The notes under the pieces: model-generated
Databases searched by the model: none
Told to the model about the DNA's origin: nothing
What the model saw: the letters and a program-made list of their open reading frames with translations, nothing else
In this document: in pieces, positions 11,033-19,603 of the stretch
Numbering within the stretch: the stretch's first letter is position 1
Layout of the letters: every line of letters starts with the position of its first letter
Position numbers and translations under genes: made by a program
Source: Geobacteraceae bacterium
GTDB taxonomy: Bacteria > Desulfobacterota > Desulfuromonadia > Geobacterales > Pseudopelobacteraceae
Length of the DNA: 32,000 bases
Assembly: GCA_025355325.1 (NCBI GenBank)
Contig: JANXZX010000098.1
Coordinates: 1-32,000, forward strand
Reading direction: 5' to 3'

Positions 11033-11165
11033 GAAACACTGAGCAACGGAGCAACAGAGAGAACAAACACTGACTTATAGTAAACAATCATGCGGGAGAT
11101 TTACAAGTTGTTTAATCGGTAAAATATCTTTAGATCTTCTCCGTTGCTCTGTTGCTCTGTGTTTT
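11033..11165. repeat. ORF-less copy of the GAGCAAC inverted-repeat pair (arms 11033-11063 and 11136-11165, ~72-bp interior)
   Basis: Arm C reads GAAACACTGAGCAACGGAGCAACAGAGAGAA. The reverse complement of arm D reads AAAACACAGAGCAACAGAGCAACGGAGAAG. This is the same repeat family and the same geometry as the arms flanking the GxxExxY gene. Confidence 0.8.
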
Positions 11166-12485
11166 AAATTGCAGTTTCCAATCGTCCAACGCCACCAATG
11201 CCCGCTCTGCCAACTTCTGCCGCCGTTCCTTCTTTTTTATTTTCCCCGCCAGTTCCGGGAAAAGTCCATAATTCACATTCATCGGCTGGAAATGCTTAAC
11301 ATCAGCATTGGTAATATGGTGCATCAAAGCGCCCAGAGCGGTTTCAGGAGGCGGCACCGGAATCGGCTCGCCCTGCACAAAACATACAGCAGCAATTCCC
11401 GCCAGAAAACCACTGGCAACCGACTCCACATACCCCTCCACCCCGGTAATCTGGCCGGCAAAGAAAATTCTCGGCTGGCTCTTCAACTGCTGCGTATCTT
11501 CAAGCAACGCCGGAGAATTGATAAACGTATTACGGTGCATCGACCCGAGCCGAACAAACTCGACATTTTCAAGCCCCGGAATCATCCTGAAAATTCGGCG
11601 CTGTTCAGGCCAGGTCAGCTTGGTCTGGAAACCGACCAGATTATACATGGTTTTTTCGCGGTTTTCGGCCCGCAACTGGATGACAGCGTGTGCCTCATAA
11701 CCGGTATTCGGATCAATCAACCCGACCGGCTTCATCGGCCCGAAACGAAGCGTTTCCACGCCGCGCGCCGCAAGCTCCTCAACCGGCATACACCCCTCGA
11801 AGTGAACGACCTTCTCAAAATCACGCGCAGGAACCTTCTCGCCGCGCAAAAGTTCATCGACAAAGCGCAGGTATTCATCTTCATTGAGCGGACAGTTAAG
11901 ATAGTCATCGCCATCTCCCTTACCGTAGCGCGAAGCGGCGAACACCTTCGTCATATCGAGAGAATCTGCTGCAACAATCGGAGCGATTGCATCATAAAAG
12001 TACAGCCGGTCACCGGTCAGGTCAGCCAGAGACAAGGCCAGAGCATCACTGGTAAGCGGTCCTGAAGCGATGACAACCGTCCCCTCAGCCGGAATGGCGG
12101 TTGATTCCGCCCGTTCAACCCGTATCAGCGGATGGGACTCAATTTTCCCGGTAACGTAATCGGAAAAAAGTTGTCGATCCACCGCCAGCGCACCGCCTGC
12201 CGGAACAGAGGTTGCTTCGGCCGCCTCCATCGCCAAAGAGCCACAGCGACGCAGCTCTTCTTTAAGCAGGCCCACGGCATTATCAAGCGAAATTCCGCGC
12301 AGGGAGTTGGAGCAGACCAGTTCCGCCAGGCCGGGAAGATGGTGGGCAGGTGAGAACCGCTGCGGTTTCATTTCATGGATAACAACCGAAACGCCGCGCT
12401 GCGCGGCCTGCCAGGCGGCTTCACAGCCAGCAAGGCCGCCGCCGATGATGGTAATTTGTTTCTGTGATTCTATGCTATTTGGCAA
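11130..12485 (-). CDS. trmFO: Methylenetetrahydrofolate--tRNA-(uracil-5-)-methyltransferase TrmFO (Gid)
   Basis: The FAD motif [18 protein letters not shown] is present and Gid/TrmFO-like sequence runs the full length. The start is TTG at 12485 with an AAGGAGA SD. The last ~12 codons ([11 protein letters not shown]) are encoded by repeat arm D. Confidence 0.9.
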
Positions 12486-12544
12486 AGGGCTCTCCTTGAA
12501 TTGTCATGCAACTCTGTATTAGATGATATTCCAATTTCAAATAG

Positions 12545-13054
12545 TTATTCTTCAAACAGAAGCCGCCTTAATCGTTCCAGTCCCTCTGCCGGAAGCCTTC
12601 TGCCGACGGTTGGCCAGACGGAAAGCCACTTCATAAGTTCTTTTGACTCAAGCAATTGTAAACGATGAGCTTCCTCTACAATCCAGAAACTGCCCCGGAA
12701 TGCTACTCCCTCCTCGGAACATCTTTCACGCAATGGTCGATCACCGGCAAGGACAGTATGACCATTCACCTTGGCATGACACAGCGTCATCATATCAATA
12801 GTGCTTACCCCACCCCGACGCATGCCAGTTGCCATGCTGGCCAGATCGCGTGTCGTTTCGACTACAGCAATCCCCGATTGTATTATGTTCTGCACCAAGC
12901 CCGGTTGACTTGCGTGTTCGCATTCATCCAGCACAACATCCAATATCTCGCATGGAGCAATTCGCGGTAATATAGCGATCCCGCCAACGTACTCAAGATC
13001 GATCAGAATACTGGTGTCGGCGAGGAGGATCAAGGCAGTTCCTCCGAAAGCCAT
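12545..13054 (-). CDS. PIN-like nuclease domain protein (putative toxin)
   Basis: Acidic residues follow PIN spacing: LLADTSILIDL, LDECEH, TIDMMTLCHAKVNGHTVLAGDRPL. The ATG at 13054 overlaps the upstream gene by 25 nt. An alternative TTG at 13033 follows GGAGGA by 6 nt and forms a TTGA overlap with the upstream stop. Confidence 0.6.
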   Translation of the reverse strand: MAFGGTALILLADTSILIDLEYVGGIAILPRIAPCEILDVVLDECEHASQPGLVQNIIQSGIAVVETTRDLASMATGMRRGGVSTIDMMTLCHAKVNGHTVLAGDRPLRERCSEEGVAFRGSFWIVEEAHRLQLLESKELMKWLSVWPTVGRRLPAEGLERLRRLLFEE

Positions 13055-14097
13055 TTATTGAGTTCTGTCCGGACGGTGTGGACCGGTTCTCCCAGAACTT
13101 CGGCGGCCTTGGAAGTGGTAATTTTCTCTTCAATCAGGGCCTGATACACCAGCCGGTCAAGTCGGCGAAGAGAATCAGGGGGAGTAAGGTTTATCGGCTC
13201 GTCTTCCTTGCCGTACTTCTCATTTATCTTGGCTATCTGCTGGAACGTCTGACGTGAAGAAATAATACCGAGTTGCCCCGCACGAACCAGAACCGTCCTC
13301 ATGCTTACAGAGTATCGGCGTTTGATGTCACCCAACAGAGAAAACGGCAGCCATCGGTTACGGTAGGGGTGCAGCTCGGCTTCGACCATGTTACGCGGTA
13401 GAAGCACCGCACCCGCCAGAAAATTAGCCGCCTGTTCCCGTGGATCCGTCTTTCCGGATTTCACAGTCGCCACTGCGGGAGCCTGATACTCCTTGCGATG
13501 AAAAATCAGATGGGAAAGCTCGTGGAGCGCCGTGAAATATTGCCGCTCCGTGCGATGATCCGCGTTGACGAAGATCGCTCCGCCGACCTCATCCGTGTAG
13601 GCCGAAAACCCGGAAACTGAGTTCGGCAGCTTTTGCAGAAATACTTTGATTCCCTTACCTTCCAGCAATGACAAAACATCACCAAGCGGGGCATCCTCGA
13701 CACCCAGCCAGTCACGCACCTCGTGTGCCACCTGTTCGACCATATGGGGATCGAATGTGGTTAATGGGCGGGATATCGGCAAATTCGGTAGAGCACCGGC
13801 CAGCTTCTCAATATCGGCGTAATCGCAGGCTTTACGGGTCAGCACTTTTTTAAGACCTGGCGATAACGACTCAGCAGCATCCGCCCGGAACAGCAACACC
13901 GGCTCAGCTTCATTATCCGTCCCGAGCATAACATCAATCGGTACATTCAGAATCCGGCACAGCTTGATGACTTGCTGCATTGAAGGCTCACGATCTCCGC
14001 GTTCCCAGGCAGCAATGGTTTGGCGCGTAACTCCAGCCTGTTCGCCCAGAGACTCCTGTCCTATGCCGGCCAGCTCTCTAACCTCGCGTAAAATCAT
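13030..14097 (-). CDS. XRE-type HTH fused to an ImmA/IrrE-family (COG2856, M78) zinc metallopeptidase
   Basis: The N-terminus is an HTH (LGEQAGVTRQTIAAWERGDREPSMQQVIKLCRILNV). The central region carries the peptidase HExxH motif (YFTALHELSHLIFH). An AAGGA SD lies upstream. Confidence 0.8.
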   Translation of the reverse strand: MILREVRELAGIGQESLGEQAGVTRQTIAAWERGDREPSMQQVIKLCRILNVPIDVMLGTDNEAEPVLLFRADAAESLSPGLKKVLTRKACDYADIEKLAGALPNLPISRPLTTFDPHMVEQVAHEVRDWLGVEDAPLGDVLSLLEGKGIKVFLQKLPNSVSGFSAYTDEVGGAIFVNADHRTERQYFTALHELSHLIFHRKEYQAPAVATVKSGKTDPREQAANFLAGAVLLPRNMVEAELHPYRNRWLPFSLLGDIKRRYSVSMRTVLVRAGQLGIISSRQTFQQIAKINEKYGKEDEPINLTPPDSLRRLDRLVYQALIEEKITTSKAAEVLGEPVHTVRTELNKWLSEELP

Positions 14098-14147
14098 GGG
14101 AGATTCCTTTCTTCCTACTGATCAAATAAGTAAGGGCATTGCATAGC

Positions 14148-14211
14148 ATGTTATATTTATGTAACATTACTTGCATAAAATTGATAATTTTACAACAGCT
14201 AAATGTTACAT
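14148..14211. promoter_or_regulatory. AT-rich promoter/operator region with repeated ATGTTA(C/T)AT motifs upstream of the HTH-ImmA gene
   Basis: ATGTTA (14148-14153) and TAACAT (14162-14167) form an inverted pair, and ATGTTACAT recurs at 14203-14211. They lie 50-115 nt upstream of the ATG at 14097 in the most AT-rich stretch of the window. Confidence 0.3.
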
Positions 14212-14255
14212 TACAAATATTGCTTTCAATCAAGCCACATTCGAACACAACAACG

Positions 14256-14278
14256 AAAAAACCCGGCTTTAAGCCGGG
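14256..14278 (-). terminator. Rho-independent terminator after the HipS-HIRAN gene
   Basis: The stem CCCGGC/GCCGGG (14262-14267/14273-14278) has a 5-nt loop and is followed on the minus strand by a 6-nt U run (14256-14261). It lies 31 nt past the stop at 14310. Confidence 0.75.
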
Positions 14279-14309
14279 CGGCGCTTGGTATATGACTCGA
14301 CAAAAAATC

Positions 14310-15068
14310 TCAGGCGGCAATTGCCAACAATGGCTGAAATTCCGGCGCAGACATCGGTTCATAACTAACAGCCCAGCGGCCTTTGATCTCAATTAGCACC
14401 CGTTGTTTGGATGGTGCAGGTGTAGGGTTCACCTTTACCACAGTAGCCCTGATATCGTTCGGTGATTCACAGATTGCTTGGAACAGGTCTTTAACAAGGT
14501 ATCTGGGTGTCCAGCCGATCATGTGATAGTCGTCAGGTGTCTCCAGCTGAACCGCCAGAACCGTTACCGGGTTATTCAGTTCGATTGCTACCCGCAAATG
14601 CTCACCACTTTGCAATTTCATAAGCCTCTCTTGCGCCGCTGCGTTTACATGCCGCCATCCGTGCAGAAAGAATTTGCAAGCGAACTCCCCATTCTTGCGC
14701 CGTACAGTCTTCGGAAAAACTTCCAGATTATCAGTTTGCCTCTCTCCGCCAGTTAGAGCCAAAATTTCCAGCGGACTGGCATGTTGGGGGTCAAGACCCA
14801 ATTGCTGAATGTAATCCTTAAAATCTTCGCGCCCCTCACCCAGAATTCGGTTACGAAACAGCGGGAAAAGTTCCGATGATTTGTAAATCTTGTGGAAATC
14901 AGGAAATGCGTCAAGCGGCTCCAGCCCCGCACGCTGTCTCGCTATTTCTGCGCCTTGAGTATATTTGAATTCAAAACGTGATCTTGCAATAACGGCATCC
15001 AGACGCCCAATAGGATACCATGCCCGTGTATTCGCTTTATCCTGCCATGCTACAAATAGTGTTTTCAC
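14310..15068 (-). CDS. HipS-like (HipA N-subdomain-like) / HIRAN domain fusion protein, putative antitoxin or sensor partner of the kinase
   Basis: The N-terminal ~120 aa fit the HipA N-terminal pattern (YPIGRL..FEFKY..LFPLFRNRILGEG..LEILALTGGERQTDNLEV). The C-terminal ~110 aa fit HIRAN (LQSGEHLRVAIELNNPVTVLAVQLE..MIGWTPRYL..ATVVKVN). The start is GTG, with a GAGG SD overlapping the kinase stop. Confidence 0.65.
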   Translation of the reverse strand: MKTLFVAWQDKANTRAWYPIGRLDAVIARSRFEFKYTQGAEIARQRAGLEPLDAFPDFHKIYKSSELFPLFRNRILGEGREDFKDYIQQLGLDPQHASPLEILALTGGERQTDNLEVFPKTVRRKNGEFACKFFLHGWRHVNAAAQERLMKLQSGEHLRVAIELNNPVTVLAVQLETPDDYHMIGWTPRYLVKDLFQAICESPNDIRATVVKVNPTPAPSKQRVLIEIKGRWAVSYEPMSAPEFQPLLAIAA

Positions 15069-15077
15069 AGTTGAACC

Positions 15078-15962
15078 TCATTCAATCTTTTCCTGGTAGT
15101 TGCCAACATGTGACAACAGAACCTCTTTCGCGGATGCATCCATCCATTTTACGGGAATACGCTCCACTATGCCAACGATTTCTTCTTCACCCACATGCCT
15201 GAGAAGTTGCAAACAGTGGGAAAAATATTTGGGAAATGACTTGGCTGTTTTCTGAGCCAGCAACAAAGGATTGTCTCTGTCTGTATCAGCTGCATCCCAG
15301 TAAATCCCACCCCGCCCACGCAAAACATAGCGTTCAATGCCGTCTCGCTCAAGGAGTATCCTTTTTCGTTTTTCGTCTCGCAATTCCCGACCCAGCGAAG
15401 AAGCATGGTCAAAAGATGGCGCAATTGAATGCATGGTTTTACCTCGGGAAATCCAACGCAGAAGTCCCCAGTTGTCATGATGGCGGTCGGTGTTGCAAAT
15501 CAATGCATCAAGAACAATGTAGCCGGCTAATATGCGGAGCTGCCCTGACCGCTTGTTCTGCGGGAAGACCCGTTCAACCGCTGTAATGATGTTTTTTATA
15601 CAGTGGTCGCTTTGGCCCCATTGTTTTGACTTCTCATAGTCCGTTATACGCCCTGCCAACACCTCGCTGCCATGAATAAGCTCAAAACCTTTCTTTGTCT
15701 CAACGAACGAGCGGGACGCGCATCCTCGTTGGCCCATGAAGGTTGCCAACTCAACCTGTGCGGCGGGTATTTTCAGAAGCCTCGCCAGCTCCGAAGCAAT
15801 TTTCTCCGACCAATCTTCGCCGGTGTTTTCTCTGGTGAATTTGAACAACCATGGCTGAGTGTCACCTTGCAAACGAAACCAGAACTTTGGTTTGCTGCCG
15901 AGTTGTTCAATGACCTCGGGGCTGTCTGATTGGAGTTCAAGGATTTTGAAAGGTTCAGTCAT
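15078..15962 (-). CDS. HipA-family Ser/Thr kinase, core kinase domain only (putative toxin)
   Basis: HipA_C hallmarks are present: LGSKPKFW, the catalytic loop CNTDRHHDNWG, and APSFDHASSLG. I prefer the ATG at 15962 (MTEPFKIL), because the in-frame upstream ATG at 16064 lies inside the predicted promoter just after the topA terminator. Confidence 0.8.
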   Translation of the reverse strand: MTEPFKILELQSDSPEVIEQLGSKPKFWFRLQGDTQPWLFKFTRENTGEDWSEKIASELARLLKIPAAQVELATFMGQRGCASRSFVETKKGFELIHGSEVLAGRITDYEKSKQWGQSDHCIKNIITAVERVFPQNKRSGQLRILAGYIVLDALICNTDRHHDNWGLLRWISRGKTMHSIAPSFDHASSLGRELRDEKRKRILLERDGIERYVLRGRGGIYWDAADTDRDNPLLLAQKTAKSFPKYFSHCLQLLRHVGEEEIVGIVERIPVKWMDASAKEVLLSHVGNYQEKIE

Positions 15963-16040
15963 GGTAAATTTTCCTGCATCTATGATTGGCCTACCGTCTT
16001 CGTCCCCAAAATCGGATCTGACTCTCAATTTTTTTGGCAG

Positions 16041-16068
16041 ATTATACGCAGGCCAAGCACGCATGCAA
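16041..16068 (-). promoter_or_regulatory. Candidate sigma70 promoter of the kinase/HipS-HIRAN operon
   Basis: The minus strand reads TTGCAT(16068-16063)-16 nt-TATAAT(16046-16041), with a perfect -10. It lies 5 nt after the topA terminator and about 80 nt upstream of the ATG at 15962. Confidence 0.55.
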
Positions 16069-16073
16069 GCAAG

Positions 16074-16099
16074 AAAAAAGGCGGGGGTTTCTCCCCGCC
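16074..16099 (-). terminator. Rho-independent terminator of topA
   Basis: The stem GGCGGGG/CCCCGCC (16080-16086/16093-16099) is followed on the minus strand by a 6-nt U run (16074-16079). It lies 45 nt past the topA stop. Confidence 0.8.
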
Positions 16100-16143
16100 T
16101 TTAAAGCGATCTTAACGCCAGAAGGCTGTTGTCGATACTATCT

Positions 16144-18447
16144 TCACTCGCTGGTATAATCACAGCCCTCTTTGGGACACTTCAAAAACTCACCCTTGCG
16201 TTTGTAGATCTTTTTGACCAAGAGCGGGAAACCGCATTTCGGGCAGGGGCTTTCCACCGGCAGATCCCACAGGGCAAACTTGCACTGAGGATATTTATTA
16301 CAGGAGTAGAATAACTTGCCAAAGCGGGATTTTTTCTCGATGAGCTGTCCTTCCTTGCACTCCGGACAGACCACGCCGGTATTCAGCGGCTTGACCAGAG
16401 GCTGGATATTCTTGCAGGCCGGATAGCCGGAGCAGGCCAGATATTTGCCAAAGCGGCCATCCTTGATCAGCATCGGCAAACCGCATTTCTCACATTTTTC
16501 ATCCGAGATGACCGGTTCGGCTACCTCGCCACCCTCCTGATCGACGTTGCGGGTATATTTGCACCCTTCCTGGAAACCGGAGCAAGCGATAAATTTACCG
16601 CGTTTTCCGAGCTTCACAACCAGCGGCTTGCCGCATTCAGGGCAGAGCTCATCAGTTGCCTCCGTCGTCAGGTCAGCCTTATTAACCTCGCCTTCCTTCT
16701 GTTTCAGCAGGGTAATAAACGGCTCCCAGAACTCCTTCAGAAGCGGCCGCCACTCTTTTTCGCCACGGGAAACCTGATCCAGCTCTTCTTCCAGAGCGGC
16801 GGTAAAGTTGTAGTCTACGTATTTCTGGAAATGAGCCGTCAGCAGATCACTGACCACCATGCCGACGTCTTCCGGGAAGAAGCGTTTCTTGTCGAGACGG
16901 GCATACTTCCTCTCCACCAGCGTGTTCATGATCGAAGCAAAGGTTGACGGGCGGCCAATACCGTACTCTTCCAGCGTCTTGACCAGCGTTGCTTCGGTGT
17001 AGCGGGGCGGCGGCTGAGTAAAGTGCTGCTCGGGCAAAACTTCATGCAGCTTGAGCGAAGCTCCTTCTTTCATGGACGGCAGCAGCCCTTCTTTTTCTTC
17101 GTCCTGATCATCGAGCCCTTCAATATACAACTTCATAAAACCGGGAAACCGGATGACCGTTCCGGCGGCGCGCAGCCCCGCCTTGCGTGAACCGGCAAAC
17201 GGGCCGGCTGCAGGGGGCACAGCCAGATCAGCAATAATATCGACCGAGGTCTGGTCCAGGAGCGCTTCAGCCATCTGGCAGGCAACGGTTCGCTTCCAGA
17301 TCAGTTCATACAGTTTATACAGGTCAGGCGTCAGGAACTTCTTTAATTCTACAGGGGTCTTGGCGATATAGGTTGGCCGGACCGCCTCATGAGCTTCCTG
17401 AGCATTTTTGGATTTGGTTTTGAAAATCCGTGGTTTGGCGAGCGCATATTCCTTGCCGTACGCGGCAGAGATAACGTCATGGGCGTCTTTCAATGCCAAC
17501 GTGGAAAGGTTGACACTGTCGGTACGCATATAGGTGATCAGGCCGACTGTTCCTTCGTCACCAATATCAATACCTTCATAGAGTTTCTGCGCCGTTGACA
17601 TCGTCTTTTTGGCCGAAAAGCCAAGCTTGCGCGAGGCCTCCTGCTGTAACGTAGAGGTGGTGAACGGAGGTGACGGATTGCGTTTTTTCTCCGTTTTGGT
17701 GATTTTGGCAACCTGGTAACTACCTGACTGCAACGCAGCTTTCAGAGCGGTCGCAATGTCCTCACCGGGAATGTCGAACTTGCCGAGTTTTTTACCCCCC
17801 ACATCGACCAGACCGGCCTTGAACTCCTGACCGGCGGAGACCCCGAGACGGGCCGCAATGGTCCAGTATTCCTGTTCGTTAAAGGCGAGAATTTCCTTTT
17901 CACGCTCACAGACGAGACGCAACGCCACCGACTGGACACGACCGGCGGAAAGCCCGTAGCGGATCTTTTTCCAGAGGAACGGCGAGAGATTGAAGCCGAC
18001 CAGATAATCAAGAATTGAGCGGGCCTGTTGGGCGTTTACCAGATCAAGGGCAATATCGCGGGGATTTTTGACGGCATGCAGAATCGCCTCTTTGGTGATC
18101 TCGTGAAACTCGACCCGCTGGATTTTGATGCCCGGGTTCTTTTTATCGAGACCAAGGGCCGCCAGCAGATGCCAGGAGATCGCTTCTCCTTCGCGGTCGG
18201 GGTCAGTTGCCAGCAACAGTCTATCCGCCCCCTTGAGCGCCGCTTTGATGGCATCGAGATGTTTTTTGCTTTCCGGCAACACGTGGTACTTGGGTTCAAA
18301 ACCCTTTTCAATATCCACTGAACCCTGCTTGCTCGGAAGAGCGCGGACATGCCCGAATGAAGCCAGAACTTTAAAATCAGGCCCCAGAAATTTTTCTATG
18401 GTTTTCCCCTTGGCAGGAGATTCGACGATAACGAGATTATGTGACAT
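16144..18447 (-). CDS. topA: DNA topoisomerase I
   Basis: It opens with a Toprim N-terminus (LVIVESPAKGKTIEKFLG) and carries the type IA core with the active-site region GLITYMRTDS. Four C-terminal Cys4 zinc-ribbon repeats are present (CPECG...C..C type). Confidence 0.95.
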   Translation of the reverse strand: MSHNLVIVESPAKGKTIEKFLGPDFKVLASFGHVRALPSKQGSVDIEKGFEPKYHVLPESKKHLDAIKAALKGADRLLLATDPDREGEAISWHLLAALGLDKKNPGIKIQRVEFHEITKEAILHAVKNPRDIALDLVNAQQARSILDYLVGFNLSPFLWKKIRYGLSAGRVQSVALRLVCEREKEILAFNEQEYWTIAARLGVSAGQEFKAGLVDVGGKKLGKFDIPGEDIATALKAALQSGSYQVAKITKTEKKRNPSPPFTTSTLQQEASRKLGFSAKKTMSTAQKLYEGIDIGDEGTVGLITYMRTDSVNLSTLALKDAHDVISAAYGKEYALAKPRIFKTKSKNAQEAHEAVRPTYIAKTPVELKKFLTPDLYKLYELIWKRTVACQMAEALLDQTSVDIIADLAVPPAAGPFAGSRKAGLRAAGTVIRFPGFMKLYIEGLDDQDEEKEGLLPSMKEGASLKLHEVLPEQHFTQPPPRYTEATLVKTLEEYGIGRPSTFASIMNTLVERKYARLDKKRFFPEDVGMVVSDLLTAHFQKYVDYNFTAALEEELDQVSRGEKEWRPLLKEFWEPFITLLKQKEGEVNKADLTTEATDELCPECGKPLVVKLGKRGKFIACSGFQEGCKYTRNVDQEGGEVAEPVISDEKCEKCGLPMLIKDGRFGKYLACSGYPACKNIQPLVKPLNTGVVCPECKEGQLIEKKSRFGKLFYSCNKYPQCKFALWDLPVESPCPKCGFPLLVKKIYKRKGEFLKCPKEGCDYTSE

Positions 18448-18461
18448 ATGTAGTAGATTCC

Positions 18462-19556
18462 TTATCCAGTAACAGCATAGTGTGTGCCGGGTAGCGGCGT
18501 AACCGCCCCCTTGAGTTCAAGGTGCAGTAACATAGAGGAAACCTCACCGGCTGTCAATTCAGTTTGGGAGATGAGGTCATCAATGTGCAGTGGCGAGCGT
18601 GCCAACAGTTCATAAATTGCTGCTTCTTTCGGGGTCAGCGCAAAGGTTCGCGCAGGTGGCGCAAACAACGGAGCATCAGCAGAAGCACGGGCATACTCCG
18701 GGAGTTCTTCCAGAATATCTTCAACGCAATCAACGAGCTTTGCCCCCTGTTTGATCAGACGATTGCAGCCCCGGCTGGTGGCAAAGGAAATATTTCCCGG
18801 TACGGCAAAGACGTCACGCCCCTGCTCCAGAGCATACTGGGCGGTGATCAGTGAACCGCTTTTTTCAGCGGCCTCGACAACCAGCACACCACTGGACAGC
18901 CCGCTGATAATCCGGTTGCGCCGGGGAAAATTTTCGGCCAACGGCTGGGTTCCGAGTGGAAATTCCGACAGCAGACACCCCTTCACCGCCATTTCCTCGA
19001 AGAGGGCACGATTTTCCGGCGGATAAACCGTGTCTACGCCACATCCCAACACGCCGAGACTTCTTCCTCCTGCCCGTAGTGCTGCTTTATGAGCTGCGGT
19101 ATCAACACCACGCGCCATACCCGACACGACACAAACCCCGTGACTTGCAAGTGCCTCAGCCAGATTCCCGGTGGTCATAATTCCGTACGATGTCGCCCGG
19201 CGCGAACCGACGATCGCAATTGACAGCTCACAGGAACGCAGCTCCCCCTTAACGTACAGAAACGGCGGCGGATCGGGAATTTCAAACAGAGACTTAGGAT
19301 AGTCGCACGAAGTATATGTCACCAGCCGCGCCGCGCTTGCCTCCAACCGGCGGCACTCCTCCTCCGCAAAACGCCGCCATTCACCACTTTTTATGGCATC
19401 AATCACCACAGGAGTTATCCCCCTGATACCGGCAAGTGAAGCGGGTGACGCATTCAACGCAGTTTCCGGCGTATCGAAACGTTCCAGAAGGCGCCGGAAC
19501 GAAACATTGCCGATTCCGGGAACCGCTTTGAGACCTATCCAGAAAAACTCATCCAT
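18462..19556 (-). CDS. dprA: DNA-processing protein DprA (Smf)
   Basis: The DprA Rossmann-like core is present (IAIVGSRRATSYG, SGMARGVDTAAH, AVPGNI) with a C-terminal winged-helix-like tail. I prefer the ATG at 19556 (MDEFF), because the track start at 19595 lies inside the upstream terminator hairpin. Confidence 0.9.
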   Translation of the reverse strand: MDEFFWIGLKAVPGIGNVSFRRLLERFDTPETALNASPASLAGIRGITPVVIDAIKSGEWRRFAEEECRRLEASAARLVTYTSCDYPKSLFEIPDPPPFLYVKGELRSCELSIAIVGSRRATSYGIMTTGNLAEALASHGVCVVSGMARGVDTAAHKAALRAGGRSLGVLGCGVDTVYPPENRALFEEMAVKGCLLSEFPLGTQPLAENFPRRNRIISGLSSGVLVVEAAEKSGSLITAQYALEQGRDVFAVPGNISFATSRGCNRLIKQGAKLVDCVEDILEELPEYARASADAPLFAPPARTFALTPKEAAIYELLARSPLHIDDLISQTELTAGEVSSMLLHLELKGAVTPLPGTHYAVTG

Positions 19557-19579
19557 TATAATACCTGCAACACTCCAAT

Positions 19580-19603
19580 AAAAAAGACCGGCCAAAGCCG
19601 GTC
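19580..19603 (-). terminator. Rho-independent terminator after the LysM gene
   Basis: The stem GACCGGC/GCCGGTC (19586-19592/19597-19603) has a 4-nt loop and is followed on the minus strand by a 6-nt U run (19580-19585). Confidence 0.75.

Follow-up and report, generated by a model that had tools for sequence, protein, structure and literature searches.

A frameshifted hipIN kinase–partner pair in a Geobacteraceae bacterium, probably belonging to a family of toxin–antitoxin or anti-phage switches

A two-gene unit at positions 14,256–16,068 of a 32,000-nucleotide stretch of DNA from a Geobacteraceae bacterium (GenBank assembly GCA_025355325.1, contig JANXZX010000098.1, positions 1–32,000; the whole stretch is referred to as the window) was analysed computationally. 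The first gene, hipI, encodes a short HipA-type kinase, and the second, hipN, a partner protein in which a HipS-like half is joined to a HIRAN half. Judged by its sequence, the pair is a hipIN module, a type that has already been published, and it is also PDC-M03, a phage-defence candidate of the PADLOC collection; it is probably a toxin–antitoxin or anti-phage switch. The original prediction, made from the nucleotide letters and their open reading frames, had placed both genes correctly, and their coordinates and strand were confirmed. The unit contains the following features, listed in the direction of transcription:

16077–16102, minus strand: intrinsic terminator of topA, found by scan (10-bp stem with 7 GC pairs, then a T-run)
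16041–16068, minus strand: putative promoter of the pair (−35 TTGCAT at 16063–16068, 16-nucleotide (nt) spacer, −10 TATAAT at 16041–16046)
15078–15962, minus strand: hipI, predicted core HipA-family Ser/Thr kinase of 294 residues as present, without N-subdomain-1 (profile matches)
15122–15123, minus strand: GG run with one extra G, the +1 frameshift in hipI (DNA alignment with loci L003–L006)
15065–15121, minus strand: ancestral end of hipI, now out of frame, encoding FCCHMLATTRKRLNEVQL (repaired translation)
15076–15079, minus strand: GAGG Shine-Dalgarno sequence for hipN, 7 nt ahead of its GTG (sequence; conserved in close relatives)
14310–15068, minus strand: hipN, two-domain partner of 252 residues, putative antitoxin or sensor (PADLOC, homologues, AlphaFold2)
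14694–15068, minus strand: predicted HipS-like N-terminal domain of HipN, residues 1 to ~125 (structure and Pfam)
14373–14693, minus strand: predicted HIRAN-fold C-terminal domain of HipN, residues ~126–232 (structure and profiles)
14261–14279, minus strand: intrinsic terminator closing the hipIN unit, found by scan (8-bp stem with 6 GC pairs, then TTTTTCGTTG)

Both terminators that had been predicted, that of topA and the one after the pair, were recovered by the scan (16102–16077 and 14279–14261, respectively), and the former insulates the pair from topA read-through. The claim of an own promoter, TTGCAT-16-TATAAT, held only in part: the sequence is present and its −10 box is perfect, but the −35 box, as read from the sequence, matches TTGACA at only three of six positions and the consensus promoter scan did not call the site, for which a promoter function is nevertheless plausible. 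No operator-like inverted repeat was found in the promoter region of the pair. A longer reading frame for the kinase, starting at ATG 16064 (328 residues), was considered and rejected, since it begins inside the −35 hexamer (16063–16068) and the homologues start at ATG 15962; the stretch 15963–16064 (minus strand) is more likely a 5′ untranslated region of ~75 nt. A second promoter-like sequence, TTGGCA-18-TAAAAT, lies within the 3′ portion of hipI (15146–15175, minus strand). Only its agreement with the consensus (10/12 positions) marks it as promoter-like; it could yield transcripts carrying hipN alone and hence an excess of the antitoxin.

HipI is predicted to be a core HipA-family kinase with its catalytic motifs intact. 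The protein matches the Pfam family HipA_C (PF07804) with 44.8 bits against a cutoff of 30.5 (E 1.5e-11, residues 22–189) and the PADLOC profile PDC-M03A with an E value of 5.5e-85 over profile positions 2–285 of 302, and among solved structures the HipA-like kinase CtkA is the nearest in sequence (3akj, E 1.6e-4). An alignment with 36 homologues, whose N-termini fall at the same place, supports the start at ATG 15962. The three kinase motifs pointed out originally, LGSKPKFW, CNTDRHHDNWG and APSFDHASSLG, are all present, and the window protein contains the Gly-rich loop (L21–W28, LGSKPKFW), the catalytic D159-R-H-H-D-N164 and the Mg-binding aspartate D185. D159 and D185 were equated with D309 and D332 of HipA from the motifs rather than from superposed structures. 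Eleven residues (G22, S23, K24, K26, K41, D159, R160, H161, H162, N164, and D185) are invariant in 37 homologues. The Gly-rich loop is found at residues 21–28 and there is no N-subdomain-1, in agreement with the original description of a HipA-type kinase that lacks its N-terminal subdomain.

HipN matches the PADLOC profile PDC-M03B almost from end to end (E 2.3e-80, profile positions 1–242 of 245), and its GTG 15068 start agrees with the homologues, which have GTG or ATG at the same position. The partner motifs LFPLFRNR, TGGERQTDNLEVFP, ELNNPVTVLAVQLE, and MIGWTPRYL were found as described. Homologues of HipN number 2078, and in an exhaustive search (E ≤ 1e-3) 1814 clusters at 50% identity were obtained, the top 150 all being ~250 residues long and spanning both domains. 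A full-length AlphaFold2 model built on 42 homologues reached a predicted local distance difference test score (pLDDT) of 86 and a predicted template modelling score (pTM) of 0.83. In a Foldseek search, its C-terminal half matched 3k2y (target template modelling (TM) score 0.69–0.77) and the HLTF HIRAN structures 4s0n, 4xzf, 5bnh, and 6kcs, with a probability of 1.0 for 3k2y and HLTF, and also viral HIRAN proteins. The Pfam comparison of both proteins, which had been proposed as a check, turned out as expected for the kinase; the window HipN, by contrast, came out as borderline under the refuting condition set originally, as it scored 18.1 bits against HIRAN (PF08797), under the cutoff of 24.7 (E 0.0024), and gave no match to Couple_hipA (PF13657) at E ≤ 1. 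Among 108 diverse members of the HipN family, HIRAN matches were obtained in 83 (E ≤ 0.01, best 2e-14) and Couple_hipA matches in 18 (best 3.5e-7). A profile of these 108 members found 3k2y (E 1.4e-4) and HLTF (E 0.026), whereas a profile of the close HipN homologues found no sequence relative in the PDB.

For the HipS-like half the evidence is weaker than for the HIRAN half, but consistent. In a Foldseek search with the isolated N-terminal domain model, Legionella HipS supplied the top two PDB matches, chain 8ezr_A with an E value of 0.01 and a probability of 1.0 and chain 7vkb_B with a probability of 0.99; their TM scores were 0.39–0.47, from a model of moderate quality (pLDDT 63). A weaker match to Shewanella HipA came next. 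With a wide alignment, hhalign placed HipN residues 6–121 collinear with residues 5–107 of E. coli HipA (N-subdomain-1) at a non-significant level (E 0.03, probability 1.6%), and with a narrow HipN alignment no match to E. coli HipA was obtained. The HipN profile also weakly matches H. influenzae HI_0666 (E 0.63). Residues 76–125 are disordered when the N-terminal domain is folded alone (pLDDT 63) and well ordered in the full-length model, which suggests that the two halves of HipN form one integrated body. Taken at the level of the family, profiles and the structure model support a HipS-like domain in the first half of HipN and a HIRAN domain in the second, and the architecture proposed originally was upheld despite the borderline score of the window protein.

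The pocket of the HIRAN domain can be followed through the alignments. The conserved G-x-R, N-P, and G-x-x-P/K-R motifs align between HipN and the HIRAN domains of HLTF and 3k2y, and in the profile alignment the N-P-x-D of the HipN family falls on N-P-Y93-D94 of HLTF, where D94 contacts the 3′-OH. Asp occupies the D94 position in 69 of the 108 members of the wider family, and the E. coli homologue from the P2 hotspot (see below) retains Tyr-Asp in the pocket. The window HipN has N166-P167-V168-T169, so that V168 and T169 stand at the positions of Y93 and D94; this threonine is present in 40 of the 42 members of its subclade, preceded by Ala or Val.

The hipIN module was described by Gerdes, Baerentsen and Brodersen in 2021 (mBio, PMC8262856) as a short HipI kinase followed by HipN, a HipS-like domain with a HIRAN domain, together with a single-chain version, HipL. 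The authors proposed that HIRAN senses phage DNA ends and unleashes the kinase, which leads to abortive infection. This phylogenomic prediction had been cited correctly in the original prediction, which arrived at the same logic, although it overrated the novelty of a pair already published as hipIN and overlooked PDC-M03. The window pair shares with hipIN the short core kinase, the Gly-rich loop near the N-terminus, the downstream HipS-like plus HIRAN gene, the absence of HipB and the proposed path from DNA-end sensing to abortive infection, and its kinase, with 294 residues (298 when repaired, see below), falls within the 279–321 residues given for HipI (PMC8262856). There is no difference in architecture; the window copy differs in its frameshifted kinase tail and in the Thr at the HIRAN Asp position. 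The hipIN family itself is known from bioinformatics alone. PDC-M03 owes its nomination to copies lying within BREX, DISARM, and type I restriction-modification (R-M) loci, a criterion termed "guilt by embedding" (Payne et al. 2024 preprint, 10.1101/2024.01.29.577857). The adjacent, co-oriented window genes, 9 nt apart, match PDC-M03A and PDC-M03B end to end, but the nominated copies are embedded in such systems, whereas the window copy stands solo.

Among the other relatives, HipBST (E. coli O127:H6, Legionella pneumophila, Haemophilus influenzae) is the only split system that has been tested, and HipS is the antitoxin there (PMC8262856). It likewise combines a core kinase without N-subdomain-1 and a separate HipS-type protein. 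In the window, however, the kinase gene comes first, the reverse of the HipBST order, a HipB repressor is missing and the HipS-like part is fused to HIRAN; the window kinase is also putatively placed in Gerdes clade XI and not in the clade of HipT, whose target is TrpS. HipL has the same three domains in the same order in one polypeptide, whereas they are divided between two genes in the window. The C-terminal half of HipN shares its fold with the HIRAN domains of HLTF/Rad5 and of Lactobacillus lp_0118 (3k2y), but HIRAN is carried by an SNF2 helicase in HLTF/Rad5 and by a HipS-like domain in HipN. HIRAN domains that have been characterised show no sequence specificity in their binding of DNA ends (cited in PMC8262856).

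With modest confidence, we favour a reading in which a toxic HipI is held off by the HipS-like half of HipN and released by a DNA-derived ligand bound to HIRAN, with arrest as the outcome. HipI, a stripped-down HipA-type Ser/Thr kinase, would be the growth-arresting, toxic component, and HipN would be made from the next, translationally coupled gene. The N-terminal domain of HipN, the presumed counterpart of HipS and of HipA N-subdomain-1, would dock on the kinase and keep it off, as HipS does with HipT. The HIRAN half, packed tightly on the HipS-like half, would serve as the input; its ligand would most likely be a free DNA 3′ end or single-stranded DNA (ssDNA) arising from phage infection or DNA breakdown, and its binding would loosen the grip on the kinase. 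Once freed, the kinase would phosphorylate an essential host protein, which, if HipA and HipT serve as a guide, would be an aminoacyl-tRNA synthetase; the output would be translation arrest together with abortive infection or growth arrest. What the analysis shows is which domains the two proteins have, that the catalytic residues are conserved, that the two genes are paired and coupled, that they occur in mobile, defence-type contexts and that they decay asymmetrically in the manner of a toxin and its antitoxin; we infer the physical restraint of HipI by HipN, the nature of the ligand and of the target, and the action against phages.

The kinase of the window carries a frameshift that the original prediction overlooked. 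In the alignment it diverges from every homologue from residue 281 on, and comparison with the DNA of the closest loci (L003–L006) reveals GAGG in the window in place of GAG, that is, one extra G at 15122/15123, which swaps the conserved last 18 residues of HipI for 14 unrelated ones. Programmed frameshifting was considered as a reason for the extra base and set aside; the relatives are simply without it. When one G is deleted, an open reading frame of 298 residues is obtained that ends in ...FCCHMLATTRKRLNEVQL, near-identical to its relatives, for example P0122 (...FCCHILATTKKRLNEVQL), and that stops at TGA 15067–15065, in a 4-nt overlap with the GTG of hipN. Such an overlap between kinase stop and partner start (GTGA or ATGA) is found in 52 of 59 related loci, so the 9-nt gap of the window is a by-product of the frameshift: the GTG 15068 start, the GAGG and the gap exist as originally described, but the gap is not the native junction of the family. 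It is also solely through the frameshift that hipI and hipN now lie in the same frame. Positions F281, T289, and L293 of the tail are at least 90% conserved in the kinase family, which indicates that the tail is under selection. The 294-residue allele also occurs in contigs assembled from other sequencing runs and is therefore probably real, and not an error of one assembly. The shifted-out frame is perfectly conserved and undecayed, which points to a very recent event. As judged from the loss of its tail, the window kinase may be attenuated, weakened or dead.

The pairing of the two genes was followed across relatives in two sets of loci. A HipN-based scan with one genome per species gave 361 loci, of which the best 80 were analysed and 77 were evaluable, and a kinase-based reverse test covered 80 metagenome loci, 57 of them evaluable. 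A kinase gene lies directly upstream of hipN in 74 of the 77 loci, 60 of these genes being intact and 14 frameshifted or truncated, and no kinase is present in the other three; HipN is always full length. Conversely, a full-length HipN accompanies the kinase in 56 of the 57 loci, and the sole HipN-less locus (L214, 295–2632) has an IS110-family transposase inserted at the 3′ terminus of the kinase gene, so that the conserved kinase tail is lost as well. The pairing and coupling of hipI and hipN are obligatory. The decay is asymmetric, the kinase being broken or lost in 17/77 loci and HipN missing in 1/57 (Fisher exact p = 5e-4, with each set biased toward the gene used for finding its loci), as would be expected if the kinase is harmful and HipN protective. 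HipN is also the more conserved of the two proteins, with a mean pairwise identity of 58% against 46% for the kinase and a higher value in 98.5% of 1770 pairs; in the kinase-ascertained set the figures are 58% and 49%, and HipN has the higher value in 99.9% of 741 pairs. Conservation does not differ between the two HipN domains. The usual pattern in toxin–antitoxin systems is the opposite, and the conservation of HipN suggests constraints beyond holding its own kinase, as for a sensor of a universal ligand.

These observations bear on a first alternative, according to which the window copy is a decaying remnant, its kinase inactivated or crippled, and only HipN is under selection as an orphan antitoxin or immunity protein. 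This is possible, albeit doubtful. The loss of the conserved C-terminal 18 residues through the +1 frameshift would fit it, and kinase decay beside an intact HipN in 22% of related loci has the same direction, as has the one HipN-less locus with its truncated kinase tail. In the window, however, every catalytic motif and 280 of 298 residues have been preserved, and the perfect conservation of the shifted-out frame makes the event very recent; moreover, such a remnant would be compatible with, and not opposed to, the proposed switch as a description of the family.

The genomic contexts were examined in the same loci and in viral and plasmid sequences. Co-oriented type I R-M genes flank the pair in 39 of the 77 loci, hsdR is immediately downstream of hipN in 31 of them, and 23 of these have the order hsdM/hsdS - hipI - hipN - hsdR; the R-M-embedded loci are found within L012–L082 (for example L019 1011–9725, L044 and L064). 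Some of them hold extra small genes, such as those for proteins of 235 and 163 residues in L013 and L014. The placement between hsdM/hsdS and hsdR (23/77) resembles that of the anticodon nuclease (ACNase) PrrC in EcoprrI, an analogy that suggests a back-up suicide module linked to restriction. The effectors are unrelated, a kinase in hipIN against an ACNase in PrrC, and the window copy is without an R-M neighbour. In the two closest relatives with context, the pair is placed after a ResIII-type helicase. In addition, the pair adjoins the integrase of a Vibrio Vinavirales (prophage-like) element and is carried on cyanobacterial and actinobacterial plasmids; on plasmid pn5 of Nostoc sp. UHCC 0926 (L140, 217–8107), hipIN adjoins DUF499 and DUF1156 genes, which we take to be an R-M or BREX-like ATPase and methyltransferase pair. 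Distant homologues (31–39% identity) were found on 55 IMG/VR viral contigs, and in ~38 of these the pair lies between a P2-type replication endonuclease gene and the portal/terminase genes, the P2 gpA-portal hotspot. This hotspot holds the genes old and tin (Rousset et al. 2022, PMC9122126); the hipIN pair is not mentioned in that work. A kinase-based scan of the viral contigs gave two distant loci only, too few for statistics. The P2-hotspot version occurs in 21 of 5426 complete E. coli genomes, and the pair of E. coli SCU-115 (L141 6026–7677; NZ_CP054368.1 4306063–4307714; proteins WP_001146828.1 and WP_000185757.1), whose proteins are each 33% identical to their window counterparts, offers a model ready for experiments. 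The hipIN module is thus mobile and found in defence-type contexts.

Such mobility is shared by a second alternative, a plain addiction module, in which the pair would make its carrier (an R-M operon, a prophage or a plasmid) hard to lose, and HIRAN would tether the complex to DNA in place of HipB, for autoregulation or localisation and without infection sensing. Carriage on mobile elements and in R-M operons is in line with this explanation, as are the decay asymmetry, which is of the toxin–antitoxin type, and the lack of a helix-turn-helix antitoxin in the module, unlike in hipBA and hipBST. Nevertheless we consider it unlikely: end binding by HIRAN without sequence specificity is a poor basis for operator recognition, the promoter region is without an inverted-repeat operator, strong conservation of HipN across phyla is unexpected for a simple labile antitoxin, and old and tin, with which the pair shares the P2 hotspot, are anti-phage genes, which speaks for defence.

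A solitary HipS-like domain of 127 residues, without a HIRAN half, is encoded by gene 43 of the tailed Rathayibacter phage NCPPB3778 (KX911187.2 29921–30304; L224 2486–2869). Its product aligns with the N-terminal domain of HipN with an hhalign probability of 98.9% and an E value of 2e-17. The adjoining genes are all small, and no kinase match was found in the phage genome. A role of this product as a decoy antitoxin or anti-defence protein is possible, as far as the sequence allows this to be judged.

A split active kinase, in which HipN would provide the N-subdomain in trans for activity or substrate choice and HIRAN would take the holo-kinase to DNA ends, the target being a DNA-associated phage or host replication or repair protein, would account for N-subdomain-1 being part of the functional enzyme in HipA, for the oddity of a permanent covalent inhibitor, for HipN being more conserved than the kinase and for a coupling that appears 1:1, but it is very unlikely, since the kinase is often lost with HipN kept and the reverse almost never occurs, which fits a harmful kinase and a protective partner better, the phage-encoded lone HipS-like half reads best as a neutraliser, and HipS acts as the antitoxin in the tested HipBST.

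Several points weigh against the preferred reading, that of a kinase held off by HipN and released through HIRAN. The Pfam HIRAN score of the window protein is under the cutoff, and the sequence resemblance of HipN to E. coli HipA falls short of significance. The N-subdomain-1 of HipA belongs to the active enzyme and does not inhibit it, so by analogy the effect of HipN on its kinase may have either sign. The Thr that replaces the 3′-OH-contacting Asp, with Ala or Val for the Tyr, indicates that the ligand may differ from that of HLTF; a hydroxyl side chain would still be able to hydrogen-bond a 3′-OH, but an HLTF-like reading of 3′ DNA ends is less secure for the window copy than for the family. 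The kinase of this copy is frameshifted, and the copy is located outside any R-M system, between topA and trmFO. Some of the kinase breaks counted in metagenome-assembled genomes could be assembly errors. Finally, in the full-text literature to mid-2026 no experiments on hipIN, hipL or PDC-M03 were found (these names are shared with unrelated acronyms).

In the window, hipIN and a second two-gene module directly downstream of it (12545–14097, minus strand) make up a 3.6-kb insertion in a run of housekeeping genes, dprA-topA-trmFO. The surroundings are as follows:

11130–19595: housekeeping run, with dprA at 18462–19595, topA at 16144–18447 and a trmFO/GIDA-family gene at 11130–12485
13030–14097, minus strand: HTH_3 plus Peptidase_M78 protein (RmrA of PADLOC, 6.5e-39; NCBIfam spr1629 antitoxin family, 1.6e-30, under cutoff)
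12545–13054, minus strand: PIN-like protein (Pfam PIN, 6.6e-4; PDC-S70, 1.3e-5; DUF3368 in precomputed annotation)

The GC content of the hipIN part is 0.47–0.49, against 0.53–0.56 in the flanks, and the topA–trmFO insertion shows neither direct repeats at its flanks nor a tRNA or integrase. The two genes of the second module overlap by 25 nt, and the module looks like a Rosmer-type toxin–antitoxin or defence pair.

In Actinobacteria, the gene of a deoxydinucleotide-specific nuclease adjoins HipA/HIRAN pairs (2025 paper in Nucleic Acids Research, PMC11706625). One further, speculative proposal, more improbable still than the alternatives above, is that HipN would be a sensor of DNA breakdown products and not of intact phage genome ends. 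HIRAN would then read the 3′-OH of short ssDNA or oligodeoxynucleotides produced by restriction enzymes and exonucleases, and hipIN would be a restriction-coupled alarm that halts translation when restriction is under way but failing, with the actinobacterial nuclease as an off-switch that clears the signal; as a corollary, lone HipS-like domains in phages, NCPPB3778 gp43 among them, would serve as decoy antitoxins. If true, this would explain the embedding between hsdS and hsdR, the adjacency of the nuclease gene and the strong conservation of HipN.

The window locus adds no new kind of system. Experimental handles on the family are provided by the type I R-M linkage, the E. coli P2 hotspot, the asymmetric decay, the slow evolution of HipN, the Asp/Thr split in the pocket and the candidate phage decoy. 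In the hipIN module, a family of translation-arresting kinases is combined with a domain whose other known role is in the remodelling of eukaryotic replication forks. Should the proposed logic of a HipN-restrained kinase freed through HIRAN be true, the module would show a toxin–antitoxin pair gated by a nucleic-acid signal and would constitute a kinase-based, DNA-end-triggered branch of bacterial immunity.

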